A stretch of DNA of 64,000 nucleotides from a virus (IMGVR_UViG_3300037504_000888:39265-103264); one strand, 5' to 3'. Shown: positions 34,567 through 56,339, counted from the first letter of the stretch. The notes: a model not told the origin generated them from the sequence alone. Made by a program: numbers and translations.

Positions 34567-34572
34567 TGACCC

Positions 34573-35406: not shown

Positions 35407-36676
35407 CATCGACCCCTTCATCCTTCGCTGCATGCACGACGAGGTCGTGAAGGTGGCCTTTCTCGGGTCGTTGGCGCGGCAGGGCGTGCAGGCCGTCGGT
35501 AAGGCGGGTGGCAAGCTGTTGGCCAACAAGGGTGTCCAGTCCGCGGGCCGGCATGTTGCGCAGTCTGTCGGTGACGTAGGGGCCGGGATGGGTGTCGGCG
35601 CTGCCTCTGGTGGTCTGATTGGTGCCGGTACGGAAGGTTACAAGGGGTACCAGGAAGAGGGCGCCTCGGGCGCCGTGTCCCGAGGACTGCAGGGCGGTAT
35701 GAGGGGGGCGGGCCTTGGTGCGGCTATGGGCGGTGTTGCGGGCCTGGCGTCGGGAGGTCGAGCCACCGTCTCGGAGCTAGGCAAGACGCTCACGAAGGGC
35801 AAGTACAACCCCCTGGGTACCGCCGTGCGAACTGGACAGCGTAACCTTCACAGCGTCACGGGGCTCGCCCCCGGGGGTGCCAAGCGGGGCACCAAGGAGT
35901 ACGCGAATGCGCTGCGGGGCATGAAGATGGAGGGCTGGAAAGCCAAGGGAACCGCACAGGCGGCAGCGAAGACTAGGCGGCAGGCCGAGCAGGCCGTTGC
36001 CAAGTCCAAGCGCAAGGTGCACCGCGGGGAGAAGAACCTCGAGAGGGCGATCAAGAGCGGGGACCCCGCTGCCATCCGCAAGGCCGAGAGGTCTCTGGCT
36101 CGTGATTCACGGGCTATCCACAAGGGTGAAAAGGCTGTGGGGAAAGCCACGGATGCGCTCGACCGGGCAAGCGAGGAGGCCAAGTCGGTCGAGGACGCCT
36201 GGCAGGCGGGCATGACAAGCCTCCCGGGCGTGGCTGGGGCCGTGAAGGAGAAGGGTGTCGGTTCGTTGTGGGAGCACGGCATCAAACCACAGACGAAGAC
36301 CCTCTCCGGTAAGGCCATGTTGGCAGCGCCGGTGGCCCTGGCCGCGCCCACGCTGGCCACGGAGGAGGACGAAGAGGGTCGAGGGCGCGCCGAGCGCTTC
36401 AGCAAGTCCCTGGTCGAGAACGCGGCCTACACGACCACGCCGATGATTCCCTTGGTCGGCAGCGACATTATGGGGCGCTCTATCGGTGCAGCGGCGGGGC
36501 TTGGGGGGCGCAACATCGACAAGCTCATCGGCGCCGTGAAGCGCAAGCCCACGAGCGAACTTGGGGAGTCCCCCGGTGTGCCCGCCACCGATGGTGACAG
36601 TGAGGGCGGAATTCCCGTGGAGCGTGTGGTGAGCAACGCAGCACAGGGCAAGCCTCCGGAGGACATGCTGGTATGA
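35399..36676 (+). CDS. Gly/Ala-rich protein with glycine-zipper helices (possible ejection/internal head protein)
   Basis: ATG 35399 (MPDIDP...MHDEVVKVA); GxxxG-rich hydrophobic helices; coiled coil. Confidence 0.5.
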   Translation: MPDIDPFILRCMHDEVVKVAFLGSLARQGVQAVGKAGGKLLANKGVQSAGRHVAQSVGDVGAGMGVGAASGGLIGAGTEGYKGYQEEGASGAVSRGLQGGMRGAGLGAAMGGVAGLASGGRATVSELGKTLTKGKYNPLGTAVRTGQRNLHSVTGLAPGGAKRGTKEYANALRGMKMEGWKAKGTAQAAAKTRRQAEQAVAKSKRKVHRGEKNLERAIKSGDPAAIRKAERSLARDSRAIHKGEKAVGKATDALDRASEEAKSVEDAWQAGMTSLPGVAGAVKEKGVGSLWEHGIKPQTKTLSGKAMLAAPVALAAPTLATEEDEEGRGRAERFSKSLVENAAYTTTPMIPLVGSDIMGRSIGAAAGLGGRNIDKLIGAVKRKPTSELGESPGVPATDGDSEGGIPVERVVSNAAQGKPPEDMLV

Positions 36677-38757
36677 GCTTTTCGTTCGGTAACTTCGCTC
36701 TCGGTGGCCCCTCTAGCCCGATGCGCTTTGCGCAGGGGCAGACCCGCGGGCGCATTCAGGGCGGCGGTCAGATTCAGGGGATCAACTACCCGAGCCCGTT
36801 CTTCGACATTGCTCACACGTACCTGCCGACGACGGTCAAGCAGCTCTTCAAGTTCTGCCGCTACTACTTCCTCACCAACCCGCTCATCAACGCCGTCGTG
36901 ATGAAGATGAGCGAGTACCCGGTCACCGACATCGTAGTCGACCACGAGGACCCACAAGTGGTGACGAAGTGGACGGACTACCTTCACGATACTGTGCGCG
37001 TCCGCTCCTTCCAGGTCGAGTGTGGGCTTGACTACCACTGTTACGGCACCTGCCCGGTGTCGATGAGCTTTCCGTTCCAGAAGTACCTGACTTGTCGCAA
37101 CTGCGGGTTCAGTGAGCAGGCGAAGAAGACCCGCAACCGCTGGATCTACACTAGTCACGAGTTCCGCTTGACTTGCCCGAAGTGCGGGCACGTCGGCGCC
37201 GCCACACCAAAGGACTGGTACTACCGAGATGCCTCCAGCATCCGCCCGGTGCGCTGGAACGTCGAGGACATCGAAGTCAACTACAACGACATCACTGGCG
37301 AGAGCACGTACTTCTACAACATCCCCGCTCCGCTGAGAGCCGATATCACGCTCGGCAAGAAGGACGTTGTGGAGGGGATGCCGCAGATCTTCTTGCAGGC
37401 CATCCGTCAGCAGAAGGGCGTGGTTTTCTCGAAGAACAACTTTTTTGCCCTCAAACGCGCCACCCTCGCCTGGCAGGACCGTGGCTGGGGTATTCCGATG
37501 ATTCTGCCCGTCCTCAAGGACGCGTTCTACCTGCAGATCATGAAGAAGGCGCAGGAAGCCATTTTGCTTGAGCACATCGTGCCTCTACGTGTCATCTTTC
37601 CGCAGGCGGCGAGCGGCACGTCAGACCCATATACGACAATCAATCTACAGGATTGGCGTGACCAGATGGCGGCCGAGATTGCCCGCTGGCGCCACGACAA
37701 CAACTACATCCCCATCATGCCGCTGCCCATTGGTAACCAGAGCATCGGCGGCGACGGCAAGGCCTTGCTGCTCAGCGGCGAGATGATGCAGCTAGGCGAG
37801 CAGATCATCATGGGCTTGGGTGTTCCACGGGAGTTCCTGCAGGGTGGTCTGAGCTACGCGGGCACCAACGTCTCGATGCGCATGTTGGAGAATGCGTTCC
37901 TCAGCTACATCGGCCGACAGCGCCAGATGGTGAACTGGATGGTGGAGATGGCCGCTCACTTCATGGGGTGGCCGAAGGTCAACGTCCGTTTCAAGCCGTT
38001 CAAGATGGCGGACGACCTGCAGCGCAAGTCGTATCTGTTCCAGTTGAACCAAGCGCAGAAGATCTCCGACACCACACTGCTCGCCGACGCCGACCTCGAC
38101 ATCGAGGAGGAGAACGACATCATGGTGCGCGAGGCCGCGCGTCGTATCGAGGCTACGAAGAAGAGTCAGCTCGCCATGGCCGAGATTCAGGGCGAGAGCC
38201 AGATTATCATGCAGAAGATGCAGGCCAAGGCGCAACGGGCCATGCAGCAAGCTATGCAGCAGCCACCCGCGCCTGGCGAGCCCGGTGGTCCTCCCCCTCC
38301 GGATCACCCTGCTGCGGAGGTCGTGGGCCAAGGCGGGGGAGCCCCTGTGGTTGGCGGGCATGCCGACCCGCCCGCGCTGCCCGGGTCGGGTGGTGGAGGG
38401 GCGGCCAGGTCCGTACCTCAGGGGGCTGAAAGCCAGCTCAGCGCCGAGCAGGACTTGGGGGTAGAAGAGGGGCAGCCCGAGCAGATGCCTGGCGATGTCA
38501 TTCAGCTCGCCGAGGGCTACGCTGCCCAGATCCTGCAGCTTCCTGCGGAGCAGCAGGAGTTGGCGCTTCAGGCCATCGAGGCTCAGAGCCCCGACCTCTT
38601 CCAGCTAGTCAGCGAGTTCATGTCGCTGATGCAGAAGGGTACGGCGGGTCAGGCCATGATGCCGGGGGACGCCCAGGGTGGCCCGGAGACCGGTGGTGTC
38701 GACCAGCGTCCGTTACCCGAAGTGCTGCCGCCACGGCGTGAAGCGGCTCTAGTCTGA
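36673..38757 (+). CDS. Portal protein (putative) with zinc-ribbon insertion
   Basis: NPLINAVV.KMSEYPVT, DY..YG, GWG.P...P, LGVP.EFL.G motif order typical of portals; CRNC...CPKC insert. Confidence 0.65.
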   Translation: MSFSFGNFALGGPSSPMRFAQGQTRGRIQGGGQIQGINYPSPFFDIAHTYLPTTVKQLFKFCRYYFLTNPLINAVVMKMSEYPVTDIVVDHEDPQVVTKWTDYLHDTVRVRSFQVECGLDYHCYGTCPVSMSFPFQKYLTCRNCGFSEQAKKTRNRWIYTSHEFRLTCPKCGHVGAATPKDWYYRDASSIRPVRWNVEDIEVNYNDITGESTYFYNIPAPLRADITLGKKDVVEGMPQIFLQAIRQQKGVVFSKNNFFALKRATLAWQDRGWGIPMILPVLKDAFYLQIMKKAQEAILLEHIVPLRVIFPQAASGTSDPYTTINLQDWRDQMAAEIARWRHDNNYIPIMPLPIGNQSIGGDGKALLLSGEMMQLGEQIIMGLGVPREFLQGGLSYAGTNVSMRMLENAFLSYIGRQRQMVNWMVEMAAHFMGWPKVNVRFKPFKMADDLQRKSYLFQLNQAQKISDTTLLADADLDIEEENDIMVREAARRIEATKKSQLAMAEIQGESQIIMQKMQAKAQRAMQQAMQQPPAPGEPGGPPPPDHPAAEVVGQGGGAPVVGGHADPPALPGSGGGGAARSVPQGAESQLSAEQDLGVEEGQPEQMPGDVIQLAEGYAAQILQLPAEQQELALQAIEAQSPDLFQLVSEFMSLMQKGTAGQAMMPGDAQGGPETGGVDQRPLPEVLPPRREAALV

Positions 38758-38825: not shown

Positions 38826-40235
38826 TCAAGTGCGGTAGTTGCCGCTGAAGGGGTCTTGTACTTCTTGTCGCTTGTCGCAGACGACCATCTTGCCCCACGG
38901 TGCCGGACGGCACGAGTAAGGCGTGCGGACAATGCACCACACCACTTCGAGGCCTCGAGGCTGGTGCTCCGGGGCAGGACCGGCTCCATCGGTGAAGAAC
39001 ACCAGCAAGTTCGGTCGTGGTCGAAGTTGCATTACCTTCTGGAAGACGGGGATGAAGTTCGTGCCACCACGGCCCTTGTAGCTGATGGATGGCATCTTTC
39101 GCAGACTGATGCGCTCGCAGCGCTCTACCTGCGTGTCCGCCTGGATGAGCCACGCCTCCTGTAGTCCCATCTTCTTCAGCAGGTGGTAGCCCTCACTACG
39201 CGCCTCAATGAGCTGGTCGGTGCCCATGGAGAGCGAGGTGTCCTCAGCGATGGCAACGAGCACGCGCTGACTGACGACGCCCGAGGACGTCACGCCGACG
39301 AGCGCTCCACCTATGCTGGGGTTGCGCATGGAGAAGTCGCTGCATCCAGCCACAATCTCCTTGCTGCGGCGCAGGACTCGTTTGAGTTCACGGCGCCAGT
39401 CGACCTCCGGCGCCTTGATCTTGGTCTGAATGAGCTGCTCGAATCGACCGGGGACGGAGCCCCGGCCGAATTGCTGCATGTGCTCTTCGATGCGGTCGAG
39501 CGTGGTGCGGCGGATGGCATCGACTTCGGCCTCGCTCTTGCCGTATTGCGCGTCGAGTTCCTGCTCGATGTGGTCGAAGAGCGTCGAGCCGGCGCCGGAA
39601 CCGCAGGTACCAGCGCCTATCTTCTTCTGCCAGCCCTGACCGCTTCCGGTGCCGCTCTCTGGCTGCTGTTCGCCTTTGCCTTTCTTGCCCTTGTCACTGT
39701 CGGTGTCGGGGTTAGGTGGAGGATTGCCACCCATGGCGCAGTTCATGAACTGCTGAAGCTGCTGCTGTTGCTGTTGCATCTGACGAGAGAGCAGCTCGTA
39801 GTACTGTTCCATGGTCAACCCCGGCGGGTGGTTAAACTTCTCCGGGTAGACGACCCACGTAGGAAGCTTCCATCCCTCCTCTCGTAGGTTGTAGTTGATG
39901 GCTTCGTCGCCGGCGATGTTGGCCAGGTCCCCGTTCGGTAAAGCCTCGATGCGGTCGAAGCCGCGCAGTGGGTGCTCCACCTCGTGGTAGAGGCAGGCAC
40001 CCAGGACCTCGTCAGGGTTGGAGCCCGGCTCCGTAGGGTTGAGTTCCGGGTCGTTGAGCAGCCACTCGCCGTTTACGTAAAGCACCAGACCTTTGGTGAT
40101 GCCCATCGTTACCCCCTTGTACGGAACGATGATGGGCGTCATCTCGAGCAGGGTGCTGGCTACATACTCTGCATAGTACAGTATGTAGCCACGACCTTGG
40201 GCTAGCTTGTTGAGGGCATCGGATTCTATGCTCAT
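38826..40235 (-). CDS. DUF2201-like metallopeptidase + VWA domain protein
   Basis: YHEVEH, NIAGDEAIN, MIDAS DTSLSM, GRGGTNF, FFTDG. Confidence 0.8.
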   Translation of the reverse strand: MSIESDALNKLAQGRGYILYYAEYVASTLLEMTPIIVPYKGVTMGITKGLVLYVNGEWLLNDPELNPTEPGSNPDEVLGACLYHEVEHPLRGFDRIEALPNGDLANIAGDEAINYNLREEGWKLPTWVVYPEKFNHPPGLTMEQYYELLSRQMQQQQQQLQQFMNCAMGGNPPPNPDTDSDKGKKGKGEQQPESGTGSGQGWQKKIGAGTCGSGAGSTLFDHIEQELDAQYGKSEAEVDAIRRTTLDRIEEHMQQFGRGSVPGRFEQLIQTKIKAPEVDWRRELKRVLRRSKEIVAGCSDFSMRNPSIGGALVGVTSSGVVSQRVLVAIAEDTSLSMGTDQLIEARSEGYHLLKKMGLQEAWLIQADTQVERCERISLRKMPSISYKGRGGTNFIPVFQKVMQLRPRPNLLVFFTDGAGPAPEHQPRGLEVVWCIVRTPYSCRPAPWGKMVVCDKRQEVQDPFSGNYRT

Positions 40236-41464
40236 GATGGGCCCTTGTAGTACTTCAACAACTTCGAGTCGTACAACGTCGAGCAGACCTCTTCAGCGAC
40301 GTCGGCGACGTCCGGATCGTCGTGAGTGGTGTCGAGGTTGGCAGAGACGAGTTGCTGGGTGGGTTGGACCGTGATGTCGGCGAAGCCCGAGTTCACAATG
40401 GCGTCGTTCAGCAGGTTCCAGCAGGCCACGGCCTTGGCTGCTTGTTCCTTCTTGTCCTTGATGTCGGCGACGTGAGCTGCGCAGGAATTGAAAACTACTC
40501 GGGCAATATCGATGCGTTTGGGGATTGTCCAACCCTTCGTCAGTACATCGTGCGGTTTGGGCAGGTCGAACTTGCGGGCGTAGTTCGCCCATTCAACGGC
40601 CAAGCCCTTGCCGACTAACGCCTCGACGATGTCCGTCTCGAGACTGGGGTCGAAGCCCAGGCAACGAACGGCGCAAACGCCGTGGATGGCCCATTCCCAG
40701 GTGCGGTGTGATGGCCAAGCACCCGCAGCACGGGGGTCATCCGAGTCGGGTTGGTCGAACAGCTTGCTGCGCCTGTGCTCCTTGCCATCGGCATCTTTGA
40801 CGATGAACTGGCTGTTGTTCGCCATCATGAAGTCTTCAGCGAGTGCGGCGACGTTGGGCCATTCGAACGGCCAGTTCTGCTTGACGCGGTCCTCGCCGAC
40901 ACGGATGCCTTCGACGTTCGGCTGGTTGCGCTTCATGATGTAGTCGCACCACTCTCGCGGCGTCGGGGGGTCGTACTGGAAGTGGGCGACGCGGTTGGCC
41001 ATGGGGACCTCGAGGTCGTGGCCGTTGGCGGCTATGTCCGCTGGGTTCATCGCCATGACGATGCGGACGCCGACGGGCAGGACGTACTCACCAACAGTGC
41101 GCTCGTTGACGAACGAGAGCAGGGCGGCCTGTACGGCGGGGGGCGCTGTGGAAATCTCGTCGAGGTAGATGACCGCCACCTGGTCGTCCACCGCATGGAG
41201 AACCTGTGGCAGCGCGCAGCGGAGCATGAACCCCTCACTGGTGTTGGCAGGGAAACCACCGATATGCTCGGGGGTTTTCGTCGCTGCATAGATGGGGTAG
41301 CAGTTCATACCGGTCCAACTGACTACCGTTCTGATGCGCTTGCTCTTACCGGTGCCTGGGGCACCGATGTAGTTCGGGACGATTCCCCAGGGACACAACG
41401 GGTCGTTGGGGTCCTCAAGCGGCGTCAGAAGGCACGCCAGCAGACTCTGTTCGAACTTGCCCAT
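40232..41464 (-). CDS. MoxR-family AAA+ ATPase
   Basis: AGGAGG RBS; GAPGTGKS, YLDEI..APP.VQAALL, AMNP, ANR; paired with VWA gene. Confidence 0.85.
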   Translation of the reverse strand: MGKFEQSLLACLLTPLEDPNDPLCPWGIVPNYIGAPGTGKSKRIRTVVSWTGMNCYPIYAATKTPEHIGGFPANTSEGFMLRCALPQVLHAVDDQVAVIYLDEISTAPPAVQAALLSFVNERTVGEYVLPVGVRIVMAMNPADIAANGHDLEVPMANRVAHFQYDPPTPREWCDYIMKRNQPNVEGIRVGEDRVKQNWPFEWPNVAALAEDFMMANNSQFIVKDADGKEHRRSKLFDQPDSDDPRAAGAWPSHRTWEWAIHGVCAVRCLGFDPSLETDIVEALVGKGLAVEWANYARKFDLPKPHDVLTKGWTIPKRIDIARVVFNSCAAHVADIKDKKEQAAKAVACWNLLNDAIVNSGFADITVQPTQQLVSANLDTTHDDPDVADVAEEVCSTLYDSKLLKYYKGPS

Positions 41465-43038: not shown

Positions 43039-43185
43039 CTACCTGGAGTCCTCCTTCCTCCCCCTGTTGTTTTGCCGATTGGAGTCCTCCTTTTTCTTCG
43101 ACTCGTCGTCGCTGGAGGTCTTCTCGTTGTCGTCTGTGGGTGGCTCCCACAGACTTGCTTTTTCTTCTTTCAATTGGCTCGTCAA
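43039..43185 (-). CDS. Small highly charged 48-aa protein, first gene of the leftward block
   Basis: AAGGAG RBS, TTG start: MTSQLKEEKASLWEPPTDDNEK... Confidence 0.45.
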   Translation of the reverse strand: MTSQLKEEKASLWEPPTDDNEKTSSDDESKKKEDSNRQNNRGRKEDSR

Positions 43186-43224
43186 TGGTTCTCCTTGCGA
43201 GCGAGGGTATACGCGCCCGTCGAA

Positions 43225-43235
43225 GCTGTTATGCC
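43225..43235 (-). promoter_or_regulatory. Candidate promoter motif GGCATAACnGC (copy 3)
   Basis: In the divergent intergenic region, about 40 nt upstream of TTG 43185. Confidence 0.5.
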
Positions 43236-43291
43236 GGTGAATAGCGCGTTGTTGCCGGCCAGAAGCTGGCTGATGTACGCTATGGAGGCGT

Positions 43292-46200
43292 ATGGCCTAC
43301 ACTGATCCAAAAGAGGCGTTTGAGGACCTGAAGGCAGCTACCCTAGAGGGGCTGACTGCGAACTTTCCCATCACCGGGAAGAAGCAGACCATTGAGCTCG
43401 ACGGGCTCGAGGTGAAAGAGGATCACCTTGACCCTGACGATATCGAGACGCAGCACGAGGCCAAGGTGAAGGGAAAGAGCTGGGCTGCGCCGATCTACGG
43501 CAACCTGGTCATGCGCAATACCGCCACGGGTGATGTCGTCGACAGGAAGCGGGTGAAGCTCGGTGACGTCCCACATATGACGAAGCGCCACGCCTACATC
43601 GTCAACGGTGGAGAGTTCCAGGTCGACAACCAGTGGCGGCTCAAGCCTGGTGTATACGTCCGACGTACAAAGGGTGGTGTGGGTAGGGTCGAGTCGCAGT
43701 TCAACGTCCCCAATCGTTCTAACTTCGCTGTCACCTACGACCAGGACAAGCGCACGTTCAAGATGAAGCGGGGCAAGTCTGAGGCCATTCCGGTCTACCC
43801 GTTGATGAAAGAGCTTGGGGTCGACGACGACGAGCTCGAGAAGACGTGGGGTAAGGAGATCCTGGAGGCCAACAAGAGTGCTCGCGCCAAGACCAATGCG
43901 CTCGAGGCATTCTTCAAGGCCGACAAGAAGCGAGCGCCCAAAGACAAGGATGAAGCGCGACAGTACTTCCATCAGGTGATGCGGGAGTCCGAGCTGCGAA
44001 AGGACTCCACCGAGCTCACGATGGGCAAGTCGTTCGACCACATCAACGGCGACCTATTTAAGCGCGCCACCACCAAGATGATCAAGGTGATGAACGGTGA
44101 CGAGCAGGAAGATGAGCGAGACAGTCTGGTCTTCAAGGACCTCCGCACCGCCGCCGATCATGTGAAGGAGAGACTCACCTCCCCGAACGTACAGAAGGCC
44201 ATCAAGGCGCGCACTGACCGCAAGATAGACCAGTCTGACAGCATCCGGCAGGTCATCAAGGGCGAGCTCTTCAGCGCGCCGCTCAAGCAGACCTTCACCA
44301 GCAACGCGCTCTCCCGGGACGCCGACCAGGTCAACCCCGTGGAGATGCTGGCCTCGAGCTTCCAGACTACTGTCATGGGCGCCGGCGGCATCCAGAGTGA
44401 CCATACTCTTAGCGAGGAGGTGAAGCTCATCAGCCCCAGCCACCTGGGCTTCCTCGACCCGGTCAAGACCCCTGAGGGTGGACGAACAGGCGTGACGCTG
44501 CGGCTGCCGATGGGAGTGGAGAAGAGCAAGGATGGCCGCCCCGTCATTCCCGTGTACAACGTGAAGACCGGGAAAATGGAGCAGATCGATCCGCTTCAGT
44601 TCCACAAGTCTCGCGTCGTGCTCCCCGATCAGGTGAAGTGGGAGAAGGGTAAGCCAAAACCCATCGGTGAATCGGTGGTGATGAGCCAGAAAGGAAACGA
44701 GATCGAGGACGGCAGCTTCAACGACGCACAGTACGTGCTGACGAAGCCGAGCCAGATGTTCTCGATGACGACGAACCTCATCCCCTTTCTGGGGAACAAC
44801 TCCGGCAACCGCGCCACCTACGCGGCCACGCAGATGGAGCAGGCCATCAGTCTACAGGGGCGAGAAAAACCGCTGGTGCAGTCAGGCACAGGTAGTCGTG
44901 ACATCAAGACCTTCGAAGACTTCGTAGGCCGCAACAGCGCTCAGGTCTCGGACACTGATGGTGAGGTCATCGCCGTCAACAAGAAGCATGTCTCCATCAA
45001 GCGCCCCGATGGAACGGTGAAGAAGGTTGGGCTCTATAACAACTTCCCGCTCAACGACCAGAAGTCCGTGCTTACCAGCGAACCCAAGGTCAAAGTCGGT
45101 CAGAAGGTGAAGAAGGGAGACTTGGTCGCTGACAACAACTTCACCGAGGACGGGAGTCTGGCGCTCGGCACCAATCTCGTCTCGGGCTACGTGCCTTTCA
45201 AGGGGCTGAACTTCGAGGACGGTGTCGTCATTAGCGAGAGTGCTGCCAAGAAGATGAGTTCAGTCCATATGCACAAGCCGTCCATCACGGTAGGCAAGGA
45301 TCTCGTCACCGACGTCAAAAACTTCTACGTCAATCACCCTACGACGTTTACCAAGGACCAGAAGAACTTGCTTGGAGACGACGGCGTGGTGAAGGTGGGA
45401 CAGAAGGTCATGCCTGGTGACCCGTTGGTGCTTGCCAGTAAGCCCTACGAATCGAAGGGGTCGCTCAGTCTTCATAAGCTGCGCAAGAGCATGTCCAACC
45501 AGCACATGGACCAAAGCCTCACATGGAAGAGCGATTACCCAGGTGAGGTGGTGGGTGTACACAGGAACAAGAAGGGAGAGCTCAGCGTCCATGTGAAGAC
45601 CATCGAGCCGATGCAGATCGGCGATAAGATGACTGGACGCGCTGGCAACAAAGGCATCGTCACAGCAGTTCTGCCCGACTCTGAGATGCCACAGCTCAAG
45701 AAGGGCTTGCAGACGAATGTGGGTGCCAAGGACCTAGTCGGTAAGGAGCTGCAGAAGGATGCGGTCATCGGCGGCAAGAAGTACCAGGCCGGTACCAAGA
45801 TCGACAACAGCTTGGCGCAGGAGATGCGGCAGAAGGACCCGAACGCCGCGGTGGTCGTCAAACAGAACCTCGAGGTCGCCCTCAACCCCAGCGGCGTGCC
45901 TGGACGCATGAACATGGGCCAGGTGCTAGAGACGGCTGCGGCGAAGATCGCCAAGAAGACCGGCAAGCCCTACGTCGTCGAGAACTTCCGCAGCCACGAC
46001 GACGCCATCACCAAGGTTCAGAAGGAGTTGAAAGACCACGGTCTCGAGGATCAGGAGGATCTAGTCGACCCGGTGACGGGGCAGAGCCTCGGCAAGGCCC
46101 TGGTTGGACCGCAGCATCTCTTCAAGTTGAACTTCCAGATCGACAAGAAGGTCAGCGTTCGCTCCGGTATGCACCTTGAAGGTGCCGAGCCCGAGGGCTA

Positions 46201-49200
46201 CGACCCGTCTACGCTCATTCCGCAGGGCGGTGGCAAGACCGGCGGTCAGTCGATGGGTAACCTCGGGATGTACTCGTTGTTGGCCCACGGCGCCAAGTCG
46301 AACATCCGAGAGATGCAGACTTGGAAAAGCGAGGGCCCCGACCCGCGGGAGAAGTGGGACTCGCAGCACATTGATGTATGGAAGGCGATGATGACGGGCG
46401 AGGAACCCCCTCCACCCAAGAAGACCTTCGCGTTCCAGAAGTTCGAGGACATGATGCGCGCCAGCGGTATCAACATCGAGCGCAAGGGCAACAAGATGCA
46501 GCTCGTGCCCCTCACCGATGCGCAGGTACTAGAGATGTCTTCGGGCGAGGTAAAGAACTCGAACGCTGCAGTGGGTTGGGCAAAGGACAAGCAGGGAGAG
46601 CCCAAGCCCATCAAAGACGGCATCTTCGATCCACGCCTGACGGGTGGTCACGGTGGCAAGAAGTGGAGCCACATGACGCTGCCCGAGCCGATGCCGAATC
46701 CGGTTTTCGAAGGCGCCATTCAGAAGGTGCTGGGGTTGACTGAGAAGCAGTATGAGGCTGTCGTCACTGGCGAAAAGGGCATCAAGGACGGCAAGGTCGT
46801 CTCCGCCAATGAACGAGGGGCGAAGTTTGGGGGTGGTGCCATCGCCGGCATGCTCGAGAAGGTCGATCTCGACTCCGAGTTGAAGAGGGCCGAGAAGGAA
46901 CTGAAAGAGATGAAGTTGCCTGCGGACTTGGCACACCGTGATGGTACTCAGGCGGTTGACAAGACGGCGAAGAAGGTACGCATGCTACGGGCGCTGAAGT
47001 CCGCCGATATGAGTCCCAAGGACGCCTACACCATCAAGAACCTGCCGGTCATGCCCCCGATGATGCGCCCAGTGAGCTTCCTGCCCAGCGGCGACATGAG
47101 CGAGGCGGATATCAACGCGCTCTACACCCGTTTCGGCGGCATCGCTAAGAACATGAAGGACCCAGACTGGCGTGGTCTGCCGACGTCCAAGAAGAAAGAA
47201 GACTACTCCAAGCTTTACGACGGCATGCGAACGTTGATGGGGGTCGGTCCCAACTGGGATAATCGAGGTAAGCAGCCCAAGGGATTGCTTCTACAGATGG
47301 CCGGCAAGAATCCCAAGTCAGGCTATTTCCAGGATACACTGCTCAGTCGTAGGCAGGACATGACGATGCGGGGCACCATTACCCCCGAGCCGCACATGAG
47401 CATTGACGAGGTCGGCTTGCCCACGGCCAAAGCAATGGACTTGTTTCGCCCCTTCGTCGTCGAGAAGCTGCAGACCATGGGTCATGCAAGCTCGCCGCGT
47501 GAGGCGCTCGATATACTATCGAAGGAGCGCAAGAAGAAGCTTCCGAACAAGGCCGTGACCAAGGCGCTCGACTTGGTCATGGATGAGAGACCCGTCATGC
47601 TCAAGCGCGACCCGTCGCTACACAAACACAGCGTACAAGCATTTCGAGCGCGCCGTGCACCAGGCAAGGCCATCCAGATCCACCCATTGGTGACCGGCGG
47701 CTTCAACGCGGACTTCGATGGGGACACGATGGCGGCGTACGTGCCGGTGGGCAAGGACGCCGTCAAGGAAGCGTTCGACATGATGCCGTCGAAGAACATC
47801 TACAACGAGGCAAGCGGCAAGGTGATGTACACGCCGAGCCTCGATTCCAGTCTGGGTCTCTACAAACTAAGCCGGGTGACGGGAGACTCGAAGAAGGAGT
47901 TCAAGACCCACGCCGACCTACTGAAAGCGGCGCAGAAGGGTCAGGTCTCGATGACCGATACGGCTACAGTCGGCGGCAAGAAGACCACGGCTGGTCGCGT
48001 CATGCTCGCCAGCTCTGTGCCGGAGAAGATGTCCAATACCATGCTGCACGACCTCAACTTGAAGCTTGACAAGGGCGGCGTGAATCGCGTCTACACGCAG
48101 CTCGCCAAAGAGCACAAGGATGAGTTCGGAGACGCCGCTGGCAAGCTGATGAACTTGGGGTACGAGGCCAGCTTCGGTGCAGTGAAGGTTCAGAATCCCT
48201 CCACCAAGGGCACGGCCTTTGCTGTCGAGAAGGAGGGTGAGGACCCGAAGAAGCATGTGCAGTTCCTTCCCATGGGTGGTACGCACTCATTCGGGCTCAA
48301 GGACTTTTCCCCCGACAAGTCGGTGCGTGACCCGATCATCAAGACAACGCAAAAGAAGGTTGAAGACATTCAGAAGAAGACAGGTCTCTCCAAGAAGGAG
48401 AAGGATCGGCAGATTACCGAGCTCTGGTTCGATGCCACCGAGAAGATAGAGAAGAAACACGAGGAGAAGAGCAAGAGGAGTCCTAACAACCTGCAGCTGA
48501 TGAAGGAGGCTGGCGTCAAGCCGAGCCCTGACCAGTACCGCCAGCTCACACTGGCTCCGATGCTGCTCACCGACAGCGCCAACCGGGTACTGCCCAAGCC
48601 GGTGACGAAGAGCTACTCCGAGGGACTCGACGTGGGCTCATACTGGAATCAGATGAGCGGTGCTCGCCGCGGTAGCGTGTTGAAGGTGCAGGAGGTGCAG
48701 GACCCGGGCTACTTCACCAAGCGTCTGATGAACGTCAACATGGGTTCGCAGGTGTCTGCGGATGACTGCCAAACGGGGCGTGGCGTAGCGATGAACGTCG
48801 GCGACCAGAACATCTACGACCGTGAGTTGGCACAGGACATGAAGGTCAAAGGGGCGGTGCTCCCCAGGGGCACAACGTTGACTCCTGACGTTGTGCAGAC
48901 CATCAAAGCTGCAGACAAGAACGCGAACATCTTGGTGCGCAGCCCACTCAAGTGCCAGCACGATAGCGGTATCTGTCAGCATTGTGCGGGACGGTCCCCC
49001 GACGGTGACTACTACAAAAAGGGCACTAACGTTGGCGTGCTAGCGACGCAGGCGCTGGGTGAGCGGTCGACGCAGCTCACGCTAAAGGCGTTTCACTCCG
49101 GTGGGATCGCCAAACGCGACCAGGGCCTGGTCAACGACTTCAAACGCGTTCTCGAATTGACGGAGATGCCAAAAGACATCCCGAACCAGGCGACTGTAGC

Positions 49201-49915
49201 CATGAAAGGTGGGACTATCACGAAGGTCGAGAAGGACCCCACGGGCCTTCTCGTTCATGTCGGGGGGCGCAAGCACCTCATTCCCAAGGATCAGTTCGGC
49301 AACCCGTTGTGGGAGCCCCTGAAGGGCAAGGAGACGGCTGGGTGGAAGCCACCCAAGGTCGGTGACAAGGTGGCCCCAGGCCAAGTGTTGAGTGACCCCA
49401 GCCGTACCAACGTCAACGTGCGCGACCTCTACAAGGCCACCAACAGCATTGAGAAAGTGCAGAACCACATGGTGAATGAGCTGCACGGTATCTACGGCAA
49501 AGAAGGCGTGCGGCGCCAGCACGTCGAGCTCGCGGTGAAGAACATGTCGAATATCACACGGGTGGAAGACCCCGGAGACGACAGCGACGTGATCAAGGGC
49601 GACTTCGTGGCCACATCCAGCCTGCAGGGGAAAAACCGCGAGTTGGTGAAGAAGGGCAAGAAGCCCGTCATGCATAAGCCGGTGTTGAGAGGCATCGACG
49701 TGATGCCGCGCGAGGTGCAAGAAGACTGGATGGCGAAGATGAACCACAACCGCATCCGACAGACCGTCGCCGACGCAGCGACCTACGGACAGGCATCTGA
49801 GCTACATGGGACCAACCCCATCCCTGGTATGGCCTACGGTGCTGAGTTCGGCATGACTGAGAAGGACAAGCGCCTCAAGCCGCATCTCAAAGACGTGCCG
49901 GAGTGGGCTTACTGA
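43292..49915 (+). CDS. Single-chain multisubunit-type DNA-directed RNA polymerase (beta-beta' fusion)
   Basis: beta: TPEG..TG, GLNFEDG, GDKMTGRAGNKG, NPSGVPGRMNMGQ, GGQSMG; beta': KRDPSLH, FNADFDGD (core 47705-47725), GARRG, GYFTKRL, QALGERSTQLTLKAFH; GGAGG RBS. Confidence 0.95.
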   Translation: MAYTDPKEAFEDLKAATLEGLTANFPITGKKQTIELDGLEVKEDHLDPDDIETQHEAKVKGKSWAAPIYGNLVMRNTATGDVVDRKRVKLGDVPHMTKRHAYIVNGGEFQVDNQWRLKPGVYVRRTKGGVGRVESQFNVPNRSNFAVTYDQDKRTFKMKRGKSEAIPVYPLMKELGVDDDELEKTWGKEILEANKSARAKTNALEAFFKADKKRAPKDKDEARQYFHQVMRESELRKDSTELTMGKSFDHINGDLFKRATTKMIKVMNGDEQEDERDSLVFKDLRTAADHVKERLTSPNVQKAIKARTDRKIDQSDSIRQVIKGELFSAPLKQTFTSNALSRDADQVNPVEMLASSFQTTVMGAGGIQSDHTLSEEVKLISPSHLGFLDPVKTPEGGRTGVTLRLPMGVEKSKDGRPVIPVYNVKTGKMEQIDPLQFHKSRVVLPDQVKWEKGKPKPIGESVVMSQKGNEIEDGSFNDAQYVLTKPSQMFSMTTNLIPFLGNNSGNRATYAATQMEQAISLQGREKPLVQSGTGSRDIKTFEDFVGRNSAQVSDTDGEVIAVNKKHVSIKRPDGTVKKVGLYNNFPLNDQKSVLTSEPKVKVGQKVKKGDLVADNNFTEDGSLALGTNLVSGYVPFKGLNFEDGVVISESAAKKMSSVHMHKPSITVGKDLVTDVKNFYVNHPTTFTKDQKNLLGDDGVVKVGQKVMPGDPLVLASKPYESKGSLSLHKLRKSMSNQHMDQSLTWKSDYPGEVVGVHRNKKGELSVHVKTIEPMQIGDKMTGRAGNKGIVTAVLPDSEMPQLKKGLQTNVGAKDLVGKELQKDAVIGGKKYQAGTKIDNSLAQEMRQKDPNAAVVVKQNLEVALNPSGVPGRMNMGQVLETAAAKIAKKTGKPYVVENFRSHDDAITKVQKELKDHGLEDQEDLVDPVTGQSLGKALVGPQHLFKLNFQIDKKVSVRSGMHLEGAEPEGYDPSTLIPQGGGKTGGQSMGNLGMYSLLAHGAKSNIREMQTWKSEGPDPREKWDSQHIDVWKAMMTGEEPPPPKKTFAFQKFEDMMRASGINIERKGNKMQLVPLTDAQVLEMSSGEVKNSNAAVGWAKDKQGEPKPIKDGIFDPRLTGGHGGKKWSHMTLPEPMPNPVFEGAIQKVLGLTEKQYEAVVTGEKGIKDGKVVSANERGAKFGGGAIAGMLEKVDLDSELKRAEKELKEMKLPADLAHRDGTQAVDKTAKKVRMLRALKSADMSPKDAYTIKNLPVMPPMMRPVSFLPSGDMSEADINALYTRFGGIAKNMKDPDWRGLPTSKKKEDYSKLYDGMRTLMGVGPNWDNRGKQPKGLLLQMAGKNPKSGYFQDTLLSRRQDMTMRGTITPEPHMSIDEVGLPTAKAMDLFRPFVVEKLQTMGHASSPREALDILSKERKKKLPNKAVTKALDLVMDERPVMLKRDPSLHKHSVQAFRARRAPGKAIQIHPLVTGGFNADFDGDTMAAYVPVGKDAVKEAFDMMPSKNIYNEASGKVMYTPSLDSSLGLYKLSRVTGDSKKEFKTHADLLKAAQKGQVSMTDTATVGGKKTTAGRVMLASSVPEKMSNTMLHDLNLKLDKGGVNRVYTQLAKEHKDEFGDAAGKLMNLGYEASFGAVKVQNPSTKGTAFAVEKEGEDPKKHVQFLPMGGTHSFGLKDFSPDKSVRDPIIKTTQKKVEDIQKKTGLSKKEKDRQITELWFDATEKIEKKHEEKSKRSPNNLQLMKEAGVKPSPDQYRQLTLAPMLLTDSANRVLPKPVTKSYSEGLDVGSYWNQMSGARRGSVLKVQEVQDPGYFTKRLMNVNMGSQVSADDCQTGRGVAMNVGDQNIYDRELAQDMKVKGAVLPRGTTLTPDVVQTIKAADKNANILVRSPLKCQHDSGICQHCAGRSPDGDYYKKGTNVGVLATQALGERSTQLTLKAFHSGGIAKRDQGLVNDFKRVLELTEMPKDIPNQATVAMKGGTITKVEKDPTGLLVHVGGRKHLIPKDQFGNPLWEPLKGKETAGWKPPKVGDKVAPGQVLSDPSRTNVNVRDLYKATNSIEKVQNHMVNELHGIYGKEGVRRQHVELAVKNMSNITRVEDPGDDSDVIKGDFVATSSLQGKNRELVKKGKKPVMHKPVLRGIDVMPREVQEDWMAKMNHNRIRQTVADAATYGQASELHGTNPIPGMAYGAEFGMTEKDKRLKPHLKDVPEWAY

Positions 49916-49916
49916 T

Positions 49917-51170
49917 ATGGCACTGAAGGACGTCGACGACCAAGCCAAGAATCCGCTCGCGCGGACTGGCATGCGCACCTCGTGGACTCAACCCGAGGGC
50001 GGGATGCCAGCTTACATCCACGAGGCACGGGTCATCGACTTCAACCTGTCCAACTGGACCGTCGACGTGCGCACCCAGTTCGACCAGAAGTTCTTCCCCA
50101 ACGTGCAGGTGGCGAGCCCCTACCTTCATCCCAATCGGGGCGAGGGGCTCTACGTCATGCCCGAGGTCAACTCCAAGTGCCTCATCGCCATCCCCAGTGA
50201 TGGGCCGCCTCCGTTCGTGCTGGCGTTCATCATGCCCACCGAGAAGACGGACGACATTGACACCGAGGAGGTGCAGGGAAAGAGCGGGATGGGCAACTCC
50301 ACCTTCGCGGGGGGCCGCCCTCGAGCGAAACCAGGAGACATCTACTTGAAGGGGCGTGACGGGCAGTTCATCGTTCTGCACCGTGGGGGTGTGCTGCAAG
50401 TGGGGTCGACCGAGCTGGCGCAGCGCCTCTACATCCCGCTAGGAAACATCGTCACGGACATCAGCCAGAACTACGAGCACCACAACACGGGCGGCACCAT
50501 CAACTGGGGCATCAGCTCGAGCTCGACGGATGAGCAGCCGGAGACGGAGTACTTCCAGACCTTCAGGCTCTACGCCAACGATGAGTTCTCCGATGTGAAG
50601 GTCGCCATCGGCAGGGTGAATCAGCCGCAGCCTGAGCCTTCGGGGGACGACTACGAGCTCAGCCGCAATACCCAGTTCGGACTCGGTGAGAGCGGCCCCA
50701 TCTGCGTCGAGCTCGCCGTCACCCCGCAGGGCTACGAGACGGCCAGTGGCGCGCCGAAGACCAATGGCGCGGCCACGAACCTGAAGTTCCAGTTCGACAC
50801 CCTCGGAAATGGCTTCATGCGGGCCGAAGGGAACATGAACATTCGCATCAAGAAGAAACTACATCTGAAAGCGGATGACGATCTGACCGTCACCAGCGAC
50901 GGCATCCTCACACTCTCAGCACCGAAGTCGAAGATGCGCTTAGAGGCCAAAGACGGCATCGAGATCTTGTCGAAGGGTGGGTCCATTGCCTTGAACGGTG
51001 GCGGTACTCCGGTCGCTGCTGTAGGGTCAGCGGTGGATGTTCTCGTCACGCTGCCCATCCCCATCGCGACGCCGGCGGGTCCCGGTACCATCGTTCCTGG
51101 TCCCAATGCACGCCTTACCGGCATCATCGCCAATGGTTCATCGACCGTACAAGTGCCGAAGCCGGGGTGA
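49917..51170 (+). CDS. Baseplate spike (gpV/gp5-like OB fold) with PAAR-like C-terminus
   Basis: ARVID...TVDV...G.GLYVMPEVNSKCLI; short beta-helix-like repeats; GTPVAAVGS...IANGSSTV. Confidence 0.55.
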   Translation: MALKDVDDQAKNPLARTGMRTSWTQPEGGMPAYIHEARVIDFNLSNWTVDVRTQFDQKFFPNVQVASPYLHPNRGEGLYVMPEVNSKCLIAIPSDGPPPFVLAFIMPTEKTDDIDTEEVQGKSGMGNSTFAGGRPRAKPGDIYLKGRDGQFIVLHRGGVLQVGSTELAQRLYIPLGNIVTDISQNYEHHNTGGTINWGISSSSTDEQPETEYFQTFRLYANDEFSDVKVAIGRVNQPQPEPSGDDYELSRNTQFGLGESGPICVELAVTPQGYETASGAPKTNGAATNLKFQFDTLGNGFMRAEGNMNIRIKKKLHLKADDDLTVTSDGILTLSAPKSKMRLEAKDGIEILSKGGSIALNGGGTPVAAVGSAVDVLVTLPIPIATPAGPGTIVPGPNARLTGIIANGSSTVQVPKPG

Positions 51171-51173
51171 CGT

Positions 51174-51858: not shown

Positions 51859-53955
51859 ATGACTCAGCCGCTGTTTCATACCCTGGACGAGTTCATCGAA
51901 AAGACGGCCGGCGAGGTCAACCTCCCGGACGACCCGAACCAGTGGGCACAGAGCATCCTGCAGGAGCTCTACAAGCAGGTTCCGTACATCACGGATTACC
52001 AGCCGCACGTCCAGATGCAACGGGTCGATGCCGAGCGAGGTTACGGCCTAGGTCACGTCGAGATTCAGAACCAGACCGAGGCGCCGATGAATACGGACCC
52101 GGAGATGCTCGAAGCGACGGGTGTCCGCACGGTCCGCATTCCGTTCGTCATCAAGGAGAAGAAGCTCTCCCCGTTCGACCTGCTGGTGAACGACATGGGC
52201 AAGATGCTGCCACTCACCGAGAACCGGTTGAGGCAGGCGCTCTTCCGGCCTCAGGCGTTCGACGTTACTTCGAGGACCCCAGGCGACCAGAGCATGATCG
52301 GACAGCTCTACCCGCCCTACCGCCAGAACTACGGCTTCGGTGGGGGCGGCATTTCCATGAACGCTAGTGGCGGTATGGGGATGGGCAAGGTGGGTTCCGC
52401 CCTCGAGAACTTCCTCGACCCCGACGCGAAGACCGCGTCCAAGGCTCCTCCACAGCCCTTGCCGAAGAAACGGGGCTTCACCAAGTCCGCTGGCAGCTTG
52501 TTGAGCAACATTCTTCCGACCATCACGAGCGCTGACCACCAGCGCTTCACCGACGAGCTGCAGAAGAGCGCCAGTTACCTGTATGCGAACGCCAGCCTGT
52601 CGTGCGACTCGTTCAACGACATCCTCGGCGCCATCGTGAATACCGAGCCCAGCATGGAGAAGGCTGGCAGTTGGAAAGCATGGCTGCCCACCAGTGTGGC
52701 ACAGGTGCGTAGAACCAGCGACGGCTACGCCGTGAAGACGGCCAGTCATCACATCTGGGACCCCGACGAGGAGATCGTAGACCGGGGCGAGGTGGTGCGC
52801 CGCTTCGGCGTGAAGGTAGCCATGGACGCCGACACCAGCGGGGCCGTGACGGTCTCTGACCAGGAGGGTGTGACCGGCGAGGAGAGCCTCAACGAGATCG
52901 CCCCCGTCACCAAGCCAGGGTTCTACAAAGTCAAAGAGACCACCGGCAAGGAGCACATCGGCTACGTCGTTCCGTCACTCATCGACCTTAGTGGTGAGCT
53001 CGTGCCCATCGCCTTGTTCACCAACGGCAGCGTCGTTGCCGTACAGGGAGAGATCTGGGGGGAGGACGTGGGTGAGGGTACTGAGCTGCCGAGCGGCCCT
53101 GTAGGCAACGACGGCGCGTTCTACCAGATGGGTGAGGATGGCATCGAGATGACGGTGCCCTTCAATTTTCAGGACTCCTACACTTTTGGTACGCAGCCCA
53201 AGGTATTCCGAGGCACGACCTTCGACGGACGACCGAGCGAGGTCAGCGTGCAGCCGAACCTGGCAGGGGTCACTCCGGTCGACAACGGTCGCGTTCTGGT
53301 GCCGGAGGACTGGAACTGGTTACCTCTCGACGGTGTTGACACGGTGGTTCTGGTGGGTGGCGAGGAGGCCGACAGCCTCGACCCGATGGACAAGGCATCG
53401 TGCGTGCACGTGCGCAGCGACGGAGACAGCTTCAGCTTCGAGGGCGTACCCTTGGCCAAACTCGGCGCTGCTCAGACCCAGTGGCTAGCGCTCGACGACG
53501 CTATGTTCCTGCTTGCCGGGCTCGGCGTGAACCAAGAGCACGGTGTGAAGAAGCTGGCTGAGGCCGCGGCCTTCAAGGCTCCGCAGAGCATCCGCATCGG
53601 GCGCGTCATCGAAGACGGCGCTACACACATCAAGGAGTCGATGGCCCGCGCTGCCGAGCTCGTGGAGGGCATGTCCGCGTTCAAGCAGCCCATTTTGCTC
53701 AAAGAGGCCACCACCTTCCCCGACCCCACCACAGTGGACACGGTCCTCAGCCTCGGGTTCATCAACCCAGAGAACGTCCTGAGCTTCGTCGGCTACTTGC
53801 CGGACCTCGAGGACGTCCAGACCAAGCTCTGTGAGCTGCTCTTCAGCGTCCGTATCGGTCTGAAGAACATCCCTCAATCGGCGCTCGAGCGTGCCATCCG
53901 TTCTCTCGAGGAGACCATCGAGGGCTTGAAGGTTCTTGGCTTCCAAGGCTCCTGA
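51859..53955 (+). CDS. Large head-module protein rich in K-x-A motifs
   Basis: About twelve KTA/KSA/KVA/KLA/KEA-type motifs; preceded by GATAAT -10-like element. Confidence 0.6.
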   Translation: MTQPLFHTLDEFIEKTAGEVNLPDDPNQWAQSILQELYKQVPYITDYQPHVQMQRVDAERGYGLGHVEIQNQTEAPMNTDPEMLEATGVRTVRIPFVIKEKKLSPFDLLVNDMGKMLPLTENRLRQALFRPQAFDVTSRTPGDQSMIGQLYPPYRQNYGFGGGGISMNASGGMGMGKVGSALENFLDPDAKTASKAPPQPLPKKRGFTKSAGSLLSNILPTITSADHQRFTDELQKSASYLYANASLSCDSFNDILGAIVNTEPSMEKAGSWKAWLPTSVAQVRRTSDGYAVKTASHHIWDPDEEIVDRGEVVRRFGVKVAMDADTSGAVTVSDQEGVTGEESLNEIAPVTKPGFYKVKETTGKEHIGYVVPSLIDLSGELVPIALFTNGSVVAVQGEIWGEDVGEGTELPSGPVGNDGAFYQMGEDGIEMTVPFNFQDSYTFGTQPKVFRGTTFDGRPSEVSVQPNLAGVTPVDNGRVLVPEDWNWLPLDGVDTVVLVGGEEADSLDPMDKASCVHVRSDGDSFSFEGVPLAKLGAAQTQWLALDDAMFLLAGLGVNQEHGVKKLAEAAAFKAPQSIRIGRVIEDGATHIKESMARAAELVEGMSAFKQPILLKEATTFPDPTTVDTVLSLGFINPENVLSFVGYLPDLEDVQTKLCELLFSVRIGLKNIPQSALERAIRSLEETIEGLKVLGFQGS

Positions 53956-54638
53956 TGTACCCCTCGTTTTTCGACGAGATGCACAAGATTGCGGACGCGG
54001 CTCAAGCTGCACCTGCGCCCAACCCGGTGTTGGACAAGATGAAGGCCAGGGCTGGCGAGATGGGTGTGCCCATTCGGACCTTCATGGACATGTTCACTGA
54101 CTTCGAGGACAACCTCACCGAAGAGGGTAAGAACCTCGATGAGAAAGGCCGACAGGAAGCAGCCACACAGATGGAGCGGGATCTTACGGCCTTCTACCAC
54201 CCCGACAAGCATTCGGTGTACCTGGGAGAGAACATAGACCCGGCCATCCTGGCCCATGAACTCGGCCATGCGGATCAGAAGGGGAGCCTCATCCAGAACA
54301 GGGTGGCTCGAGAACTTCATAATTCTAGCGCACCTGTTGGGGCTTTGACCGGAGTGGGGCTGGCGGCGCTCCGGGGTTCTGATATGTCGCACCCAGCGGT
54401 GAACGTGGCTGGTGCGGCGCTCCCTGTGGTGATGGGGGCACCCACGATGGCGAACGAAGCCATAGCGTCTTTCAAGGGCTACAAGATGCTTCAGGATGCG
54501 GGGGCTAGCGCGGATGAGCTCAAAGGTGCTCGAAAGCGGTTGCGCAAGGCTTTCGGCACCTACACAGTGGAGCCGCTTGCTGGAACGGTGCTGTCTACCG
54601 CCGGCGCGGTTGTCCCGAAGAGCCTCTTGCAGTCGTAG
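53955..54638 (+). CDS. HExxH zinc metallopeptidase with hydrophobic helices
   Basis: LAHELGHA...NEAIAS; N-terminal FFDEMHKIA. Confidence 0.65.
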   Translation: MYPSFFDEMHKIADAAQAAPAPNPVLDKMKARAGEMGVPIRTFMDMFTDFEDNLTEEGKNLDEKGRQEAATQMERDLTAFYHPDKHSVYLGENIDPAILAHELGHADQKGSLIQNRVARELHNSSAPVGALTGVGLAALRGSDMSHPAVNVAGAALPVVMGAPTMANEAIASFKGYKMLQDAGASADELKGARKRLRKAFGTYTVEPLAGTVLSTAGAVVPKSLLQS

Positions 54639-56083: not shown

Positions 56084-56339
56084 TGAAGACCAACTGCTTC
56101 TTCTTGTAGTGAAAGTCCACGGCTTTCCACCCACATCGTTTCAGGAACTGCCGAATGAACCCGTTGACGTACTTCGGTGTCCCCTTGGGCAGAGGCGCTC
56201 GCATCGACAGAAGGACCTGCACCTGATGCTCCGTGGGGTTGACGCCGTAACCCCCGGTGAAGTGGTCGCCGCCGGCGGACAACCAAGGCCACACCTGAGC
56301 CAGAGCCTCGCTGGGGTCTGCCGTTTCTTGGGGGTCCAT
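55953..56339 (-). CDS. Hypothetical protein
   Basis: Fills the gap before terL with plausible composition. Confidence 0.4.
   Translation of the reverse strand: MDPQETADPSEALAQVWPWLSAGGDHFTGGYGVNPTEHQVQVLLSMRAPLPKGTPKYVNGFIRQFLKRCGWKAVDFHYKKKQLVFTMKPWPLHKQEAARLRSEEFRQEARRNREEKRLDRATPRTPAP

Follow-up and report, generated by a model that had tools for sequence, protein, structure and literature searches.

The window, meaning the whole stretch of DNA analysed (64,000 nt; IMGVR_UViG_3300037504_000888:39265-103264), is the right part of a linear 103,264-bp virus contig in IMG/VR, which originates from a tidal-flat metagenome and is 55% complete according to CheckV. It includes a single gene that predicts an RNA polymerase (RNAP) core of 2207 amino acids (aa) in which a beta module is followed directly by a beta' module. 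A search of sequencing runs for the contig gave no RNA run; those listed were the probable source, a metagenome from a tidal flat, and a single other run accounting for a small share. The RNAP gene, its parts and the neighbouring features are listed in Table 1.

The fused RNAP gene

The RNAP gene has a GGAGG sequence 5 nt 5' of its ATG. A preliminary description of the window, made from the sequence, proposed one uninterrupted open reading frame (ORF) with beta motifs followed by beta' motifs, and this agrees with the ORF call, the Pfam matches and phmmer comparison with PDB sequences. The beta domains Rpb2_3 (E 5e-6) and Rpb2_6 (E 3e-46) occupy aa 344-808, and the beta' domains Rpb1_1, Rpb1_2 (E 8e-27), Rpb1_4 and Rpb1_5 (E 2e-19) occupy aa 1071-2095. 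Four of the six exceed the curated cut-offs, Rpb1_1 and Rpb1_4 falling below them. Among PDB sequences the N-terminal 1062 aa match bacterial beta (E 2e-69, the best being Thermus beta), with archaeal and eukaryotic subunits scoring far worse, and the C-terminal half matches bacterial beta' (E 6e-95).

The lysine motif of the beta double-psi barrel, GNKGIV, is found at aa 785-790. The NADFDGD loop, bridge helix and trigger loop had been described as intact, and alignment with their bacterial counterparts shows that they are. In 10 relatives with 52-74% identity to the 2207-aa protein, these three elements, GNKG and the second zinc site show little or no variation. Judged from its sequence, the gene is real and encodes a bacterial-type RNAP catalytic core, probably a functional one. 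The altered residues of the rifampicin pocket, read against the known rifampicin-resistance map, predict that the fused phage RNAP would be insensitive to rifampicin.

The junction between the two modules had been put near 46480-46500 (SGINIE-RKGNK-MQLVPL), and alignment places it there (Table 1). MQLVPL aligns near E. coli beta' residue 20, and the linker between beta and beta' is essentially nil. Approximately 32 aa are deleted at the beta' zinc-binding domain. The same deletion is common to all fused relatives and to the RNAPs of two cultured phages, Salmonella phage Arash and Vibrio phage D69, in which the beta-beta' junction is also identical in alignment to that of the 2207-aa RNAP. As the junction and the loss of the zinc-binding domain are common to the fused phages, Arash and D69, both are ancestral to the lineage. 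The branches differ just in whether beta' is cut, at a position equivalent to ~aa 1561/1562 of the 2207-aa RNAP.

A 52-aa insertion in the beta barrel loop is missing in Arash and D69, in bacteria and, among eight fused relatives at greater distance, in at least seven. Only one cluster formed at 50% identity (P0007) aligns through it. The insertion is 48% identical to P0002, which is the closest relative, and its GC content is ordinary. Without the insertion the protein would have 2155 aa. The enzyme had been called compact, and this holds in comparison with E. coli, which carries large lineage-specific insertions, but the protein is just ~3-6% shorter than the smallest sampled bacterial cores (2276-2321 aa). 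An AlphaFold2 (AF2) model of aa 640-1500, which spans the junction, was too poor for a fold search (mean pLDDT 55, pTM 0.31).

Table 1. Features of the fused RNAP gene and its surroundings, numbered from the first nucleotide of the window.
Feature	Coordinates	Strand	Basis
Fused beta-beta' RNA polymerase core, 2207 aa	43292..49915	+	Single ATG-start ORF without internal stop
Beta module, aa 1-1066, bacterial-type, without E. coli SI1 and SI2	43292..46489	+	Pfam, PDB match, alignment
Rifampicin-pocket equivalent; E. coli Q513, H526, R529, S531 replaced by R, S, Q, T	44300..44386	+	Alignment to Salmonella beta
52-aa insertion, aa 806-857, in beta barrel loop between GNKG and LNPSGVP motifs, subclade-specific	45707..45862	+	Alignment
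Beta/beta' junction: GINIERKG (aa 1059-1066, nt 46466-46489), NK, MQLVPL (aa 1069-1074, nt 46496-46513)	46466..46513	+	Alignment
Beta' module, aa 1067-2207, continuous	46490..49915	+	Pfam, PDB match, comparison with Arash/D69
GGHGG loop (aa 1118-1122) replacing the beta' N-terminal four-Cys zinc-binding domain (E. coli C70-C88)	46643..46657	+	Alignment
Catalytic NADFDGD loop, aa 1472-1478	47705..47725	+	Motif, alignment
Bridge helix equivalent, ~aa 1782-1817	48635..48742	+	Alignment to E. coli-numbered beta' 770-805
Second zinc site, kept: C1826, C1888, C1895, C1898	48767..48985	+	Motif positions; invariant in 10 fused relatives
Trigger loop/helices without SI3 insertion, ~aa 1912-1965	49025..49186	+	Alignment
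SNF2 helicase and inorganic pyrophosphatase fusion, 958 aa	3645..6521	+	InPase E 1.5e-30; N-terminal half 37% identical to Arash gp217
Portal, orthologue of Arash gp204 and D69 VPHD69_0259	36673..38757	+	tblastn E 1e-85 to 1e-90; profile E 5e-109
DUF2201 VWA/metallopeptidase-like protein (469 aa) and MoxR-like AAA_5 ATPase (410 aa), between portal and RNAP	38826..41464	-	Pfam; synteny in 9 relatives
Probable baseplate central spike (gp5/VgrG/baseplate V-like), 417 aa, start 1 nt after RNAP stop	49917..51170	+	ESM Atlas, weak Pfam, synteny
227-aa ORF with weak zinc-metallopeptidase match	53955..54638	+	Zn_peptidase_2 E 1e-5, below cut-off; no same-place homologue in relatives
Large terminase subunit TerL, Arash gp1 homologue	56338..58134	+	PHROG 675 E 3e-55
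998-aa ORF: intein (Hint, Intein_splicing, LAGLIDADG_3) inside homologue of Arash structural protein gp222	60692..63688	+	
GCATAAC-type copies in window	17319-17325, 27914-27920, 33048-33054, 43228-43234	all -	
GCATAAC promoter-like word in gap before RNAP, facing left, away from RNAP	43228..43234	-	

Relatives and phylogenetic position

A search of 5.8 billion proteins revealed more than 119 other clusters that share 49-74% identity with the 2207-aa protein and are found on contigs of up to 200 kb. Nearly all of these are 2120-2215 aa in length, the remainder being longer and containing intein domains. A junction-spanning query (aa 700-1500, 801 aa) was also used in an exhaustive search of 50%-identity representatives and was matched at E <= 1e-30 by 1246 proteins, with ordinary bacterial beta and beta' among them. 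The best 150 of the 1246 all have E < 1e-121, and most of them are 2000-3400 aa and cross the junction in a single alignment; one reaches 4739 aa, and ~25 have lengths of just 492-1878 aa. In many relatives the RNAP gene carries inteins (lengths 2400-4739 aa), with none in the 2207-aa copy. The complete relatives in IMG/VR are 185-190 kb, two of them with terminal repeats, and the order portal, minus-strand trio, RNAP, genes for proteins of 417, 698, 312 and 157 aa, and TerL is kept in 9-10 relatives.

The 2207-aa RNAP is an ordinary member of a large lineage, with hundreds of members, found mostly in uncultured phages of ~185-190 kb. No paper on a fully fused bacterial-type phage RNAP was found among the open-access papers searched, and the lineage is essentially undescribed; the 2207-aa protein is an intein-free member of it with a private 52-aa insertion.

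The best bacterial identity to the 2207-aa RNAP is 25-30%, and no relative with >30% identity was detected among 185,579 bacterial and archaeal species genomes. Among 50,697 phage records the best matches (~30% identity) are in Vibrio phages D69, D148 and D181 and in Salmonella phage Arash, and these four are the lineage's only relatives in culture. A tree (LG+G4) was inferred from an alignment of 1995 columns with 52 rows, each a fused protein or a concatenated beta-beta' pair, among them that of the mReC-like Cobetia phage Carin-5 (mReC, multisubunit-RNAP-encoding Caudovirales). In this tree, 13 fused phage proteins form one clade with Arash and D69 (support 100), and all 36 sampled bacteria, carrying 17 phylum labels, lie across a long branch from the phage clade (support 100). 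The tree is unrooted; it shows the phage lineage nested in none of the sampled phyla and does not give the depth at which it branches. The proposal of a phage-encoded single-chain RNAP of cellular-like type is upheld by the tree and by the flanking phage genes, neither nesting in a sampled bacterial rpoBC clade nor cellular synteny having been found.

Arash (OQ632216) and D69 form a sister clade (support 100) and are ~30% identical to the 2207-aa protein over ~2000 aligned columns. In both, the RNAP is cut after approximately E. coli beta' residue 551, giving a 1525-aa protein, in which beta is followed by an N-terminal portion of beta' that contains NADFDGD, and a protein of ~606 aa with the rest of beta', whereas the 2207-aa chain is uncut. 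The gap between the two RNAP genes is ~4.8 kb with nine genes in Arash and ~0.6 kb with two small genes in D69. In Arash and D69 just one small ORF separates the portal gene from the first RNAP gene downstream, but in the tidal-flat phage the RNAP gene is ~4.5 kb downstream of the portal gene. The two products, gp206 and gp216, are labelled beta and beta' in the Arash paper, where a fusion is not mentioned (PMC10585845).

Comparison with known polymerases

The fused RNAP is similar to the mReC group in that it is a phage RNAP detectable with cellular beta and beta' models, is found in IMG/VR contigs and lies apart from cellular clades, in the present tree those of the sampled bacteria. However, selection of the mReC group required separate beta and beta' proteins, each of at least 800 aa, with NADxDGD in beta' (Weinheimer & Aylward 2020, PMC7481178). 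Those rows of the mReC table that were compared each hold two different proteins, a beta of 900-1563 aa and a beta' of 899-1391 aa (PMC7481178), and a fused chain of ~2150 aa does not occur in these rows, in contrast to the one chain of the tidal-flat phage. Fusion is mentioned in the mReC paper for crAssphage only (PMC7481178). Comparison of the metagenome identifiers of the relatives with the mReC supplement returned one irrelevant terminase row and nothing else. An mReC-like layout of two genes with sigma upstream is present in Cobetia phage Carin-5, which occupies a separate long branch in the tree.

The jumbo-phage RNAPs of phiKZ and AR9 are not known to contain alpha or omega. Like the fused enzyme, they are phage-encoded two-barrel RNAPs that are kin to the cellular enzyme, and their packaged form transcribes early genes (PMC7598289, PMC7824862). 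They differ in that beta and beta' are each made up of 2-3 polypeptides, that two paralogous sets (virion and non-virion) exist, and that there is no sigma, whereas the fused lineage has one gene and one chain, and a sigma70-family gene is found in relatives.

Bacterial beta-beta' fusions in the sample are those of Helicobacter (2883 aa), Wolbachia (2839 aa) and a metagenome-assembled genome (MAG) of Paceibacterota (2281 aa). In these, as in the phage protein, one ORF leads from the end of beta into the start of beta'. The bacterial fusions, however, have retained ~10-25 linker residues, a complete beta' N-terminus and the zinc-binding domain, and the phage fusion is without these. Each bacterial fusion nests with its own bacterial kin and therefore arose independently of the phage fusion.

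Two side observations concern the bacterial sample. The Candidatus Paceibacterota fusion (L057:172-7017) is in a candidate phyla radiation (CPR) genome, an addition to the classic examples from Helicobacter and Wolbachia, and nests with CPR sequences. Two MAGs labelled uncultured Gammaproteobacteria (L080 and L100) carry compact, overlapping rpoB and rpoC genes (1072-1073 and 1248-1275 aa). They branch at the base of the sampled bacteria and not with Pseudomonadota, and their label or binning is doubtful.

A whole polymerase on one polypeptide is also found in crAss-like gp66, YonO and the N4 virion RNAP (vRNAP), and the single-chain RNAPs of crAss and N4 phages are packaged and injected. However, the enzymes of crAss and YonO have diverged too far to be detected with cellular beta and beta' models, while the 2207-aa protein has matches to bacterial beta and beta' over its full length, with E values of 1e-69 to 1e-95, and N4 vRNAP is T7-like, with an unrelated fold.

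Sigma, alpha and omega

No alpha, omega or sigma gene had been seen in the window, and the same is true of the whole 103-kb contig. Alpha (PF01000) and omega (PF01192) had no match in it, and no sigma gene was detected in it by Pfam (Sigma70_r2, Sigma70_r4), phmmer, hhalign or six-frame profile search. PF01000, PF01193 and PF01192 likewise had no match in five complete relatives, each of which has one RNAP gene (controls were positive in 14/14 genomes).

A conserved gene of the sigma70 family, encoding ~255 aa, was identified in 8 relatives, namely the five complete genomes and three long fragments. Its profile matches sigma factors in the PDB at E 1e-9, one of them a sigma of 256 aa that is matched over its full length, and the hhalign probability for the match to Arash gp10 is 99%. 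The gene is located 71-76 kb downstream of the RNAP start in 7/7 relatives for which both positions are known. The equivalent position for the tidal-flat phage would be ~154-158 kb and the contig ends at 103 kb, so the failure to find sigma is most probably an effect of truncation. A biological meaning of the missing sigma is therefore not supported, as the contig is incomplete and sigma is present in every sufficiently long relative.

In alignment, the clamp-helix region of beta' is present in the fused RNAP and is very unlike the bacterial consensus, which fits a private sigma and not the host sigma. From the relatives, we infer that the enzyme is partnered by a sigma of this family. Assembly without alpha, which had also been put forward, is plausible given that five complete relatives have no alpha or omega gene, while independence from alpha keeps the standing of a suggestion.

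Gene neighbourhood and promoter signals

Location of the RNAP gene in the virion gene block was confirmed, with the portal gene 4.5 kb upstream, a spike-like gene adjacent and TerL 6.4 kb downstream. The neighbouring gene, stated to be a baseplate spike gene 1 nt downstream, starts at 49917 as described, and its product is probably the central spike. The 417-aa protein has an ESM Atlas feature score of 0.96 to Phage_base_V or Gp5_OB clusters, with structure rows for baseplate V/VgrG, and weak Pfam matches to DUF2345 and Phage_base_V, and its gene is kept beside the RNAP gene in 10 relatives. An AF2 model from a 10-sequence alignment (mean pLDDT 48.5) was too poor for a fold search.

Between the portal and RNAP genes, the 469-aa DUF2201 protein, labelled an HNH endonuclease in PHROGs, and the MoxR-like ATPase may work as a pair, like chaperones, in assembly of the virion contents. 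The SNF2-pyrophosphatase protein may be a partner of the polymerase that resembles RapA and removes pyrophosphate; Arash gp217, to which its N-terminal half is related, is an abundant virion protein encoded directly after RNAP in Arash. In all, homologues in Arash were found for the portal, TerL, the SNF2 helicase gp217, the gp222-like protein and two large baseplate-region proteins. Most of the neighbouring genes could not be named in PHROG and Pfam searches, and profiles of the neighbours built from relatives gave almost no further matches in Arash or D69.

A 213-aa ORF with a TTG start (42664-43305, +) overlaps the RNAP start. It is antisense to minus-strand ORFs at 42307-42918 and 42824-43150, is of low complexity and has no homologue in 10 relatives. 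It was rejected as a gene, being almost certainly spurious, and the RNAP gene is therefore the first of the rightward block.

Approximately 10 intergenic copies of GCATAAC are present in the contig, 18-45 nt before gene starts and mostly in front of minus-strand non-structural genes. A boxed form of the signal (an A-run, 10-18 nt, then sGCATAAs) was found at 6 distinct sites compared with ~0.26 matches expected. At the copy in the gap before RNAP, the sATAAs word and a GCAA box 16-17 nt away are invariant in 9 relatives. A plus-strand word upstream of RNAP, CTNTTATSCCG, was discarded as it is not enriched (3 found, 4.35 expected); its other strand is the GCATAAC word. A terminator-like 9-bp GC-rich hairpin with a T-rich tail (43132-43154, +) is located 140 nt upstream of the RNAP start, with no convincing plus-strand gene before it.

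Virion packaging and mode of action

In Arash particles, gp206 was represented by 3516 spectra, the most of any protein and above the major capsid protein, and gp216 by 1210, the SNF2 helicase gp217 by 1148 and the sigma gp10 by 467 at 100% coverage (PMC10585845). The 88 proteins listed as structural include ribonucleotide reductases and ligases (PMC10585845). It has also been pointed out that the subunits of a packaged jumbo-phage multisubunit RNAP must meet again after delivery into the host (PMC7598289). Taken together, the single RNAP gene per genome, its position in the virion block, the Arash proteome and this last point favour packaging and injection. The suggestion that the RNAP may be virion-packaged is thus plausible from Arash proteomics and gene position and keeps its conditional form. 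In our analysis, packaging in the virion followed by injection is the most likely mode, held with slightly better than even confidence.

Overall, a single-chain RNAP that is driven by sigma, lacks alpha and is probably packaged is the explanation we consider likely. The enzyme would be a working bacterial-type core with beta and beta' in a single polypeptide, belonging to a lineage in which the fusion and the loss of the zinc domain would be ancestral and the 2207-aa branch would have kept beta' whole. Initiation would involve the lineage's own sigma70-family factor, an Arash gp10 orthologue expected to be encoded on the part of the genome beyond the contig, and would likely take place at phage-specific promoters, for example AAAG-N14-GCATAAC before non-structural genes. 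Bacterial RNAP is thought to require the alpha dimer for assembly of beta with beta'. As no alpha or omega is encoded by the phages, covalent linkage probably substitutes for the alpha dimer in uniting the large subunits. Enzyme and sigma would be packed in the capsid and injected, allowing early genes to be transcribed without the host polymerase, and with a single chain there would be no need for subunits to meet after ejection.

A number of points weigh against this explanation. The contig itself is without a sigma gene, and host alpha or omega could be recruited. No convincing promoter was found for the RNAP block, a sigma70 consensus scan of 32500-52000 giving results not above those for shuffled sequence. 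This phage and all fully fused members are known from genes alone, and both AF2 models are too poor to use. The Arash authors allow that abundant enzymes may simply have co-purified with the particles (PMC10585845).

The last point bears most directly on the possibility that the enzyme is active but unpackaged, being made after infection for middle or late genes, as is the non-virion RNAP of phiKZ, with early transcription left to the host RNAP. The Arash particle list does include enzymes for which contamination is admitted to be possible, and the 2207-aa protein has no apparent capsid-targeting peptide, its N-terminus aligning with that of beta. Nevertheless, the lone RNAP gene of complete relatives lies in the virion block right before the spike-like gene, and in Arash the spectra of the orthologue outnumber those of the major capsid protein and gp10 is fully covered. 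We regard an unpackaged enzyme as possible but rather unlikely.

Similarly doubtful is a hybrid enzyme, in which the fused chain would need the alpha dimer of the host and perhaps omega. The protein is bacterial-type throughout, bacterial beta-beta' fusions exist, and the bacteria that have them are not known to lack alpha. Against this, an injected early enzyme must act at once, though host alpha would be on hand, and the surfaces of the fused RNAP have strongly diverged from those of bacterial enzymes (25-30% identity). Jumbo-phage multisubunit RNAPs are known to work without alpha. They are described as consisting of beta- and beta'-like polypeptides only, plus a phage-specific subunit in the non-virion enzyme (PMC7598289, PMC7824862).

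That the protein has lost its catalytic activity and persists in the virion as a relic with a structural or DNA-binding role is very improbable. The lost zinc-binding domain and the 52-aa insertion inside the beta barrel loop would be in keeping with a relic, but the domain is lost lineage-wide and the insertion is missing from most of the lineage, while none of the catalytic and mobile elements varies among 10 relatives with 52-74% identity. An artefact, whether from an error of sequencing or assembly that merged neighbouring genes or from mis-binned bacterial rpoBC, has nothing in its favour and can be dismissed for practical purposes, as at least 150 independent clusters, drawn from many samples, share the junction with the cultured Arash and D69, the phage flanks are in conserved order and none of the 185,579 species has a genome with >30% identity.

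A bolder form of the sigma-driven, single-chain explanation, to which we give only tentative credence, would be a capsid-borne portable machine: a sigma-dependent single-chain core without alpha or omega, accompanied by sigma and possibly by the SNF2-pyrophosphatase protein, for which host polymerase would never be needed.

Implications

The gain specific to this window is modest, being one further intein-free member with a private 52-aa insertion. The wider result is a lineage of hundreds of divergent members in which the full core is one chain, sigma is encoded, and alpha and omega are not. If active with sigma alone, the enzyme would make up a bacterial-type holoenzyme from two genes, which would be of use in structural and synthetic biology and would bear on the evolution of subunit architecture. 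Were the capsid-borne machine to prove true, it would be the first minimal single-gene bacterial RNAP core and a natural test of the role of alpha. Arash and D69 are two cultured systems in which the packaging idea is directly testable, and packaging, if it occurs, would represent a third route to early transcription by an injected polymerase, beside the T7-like N4 vRNAP and the fragmented phiKZ vRNAP.

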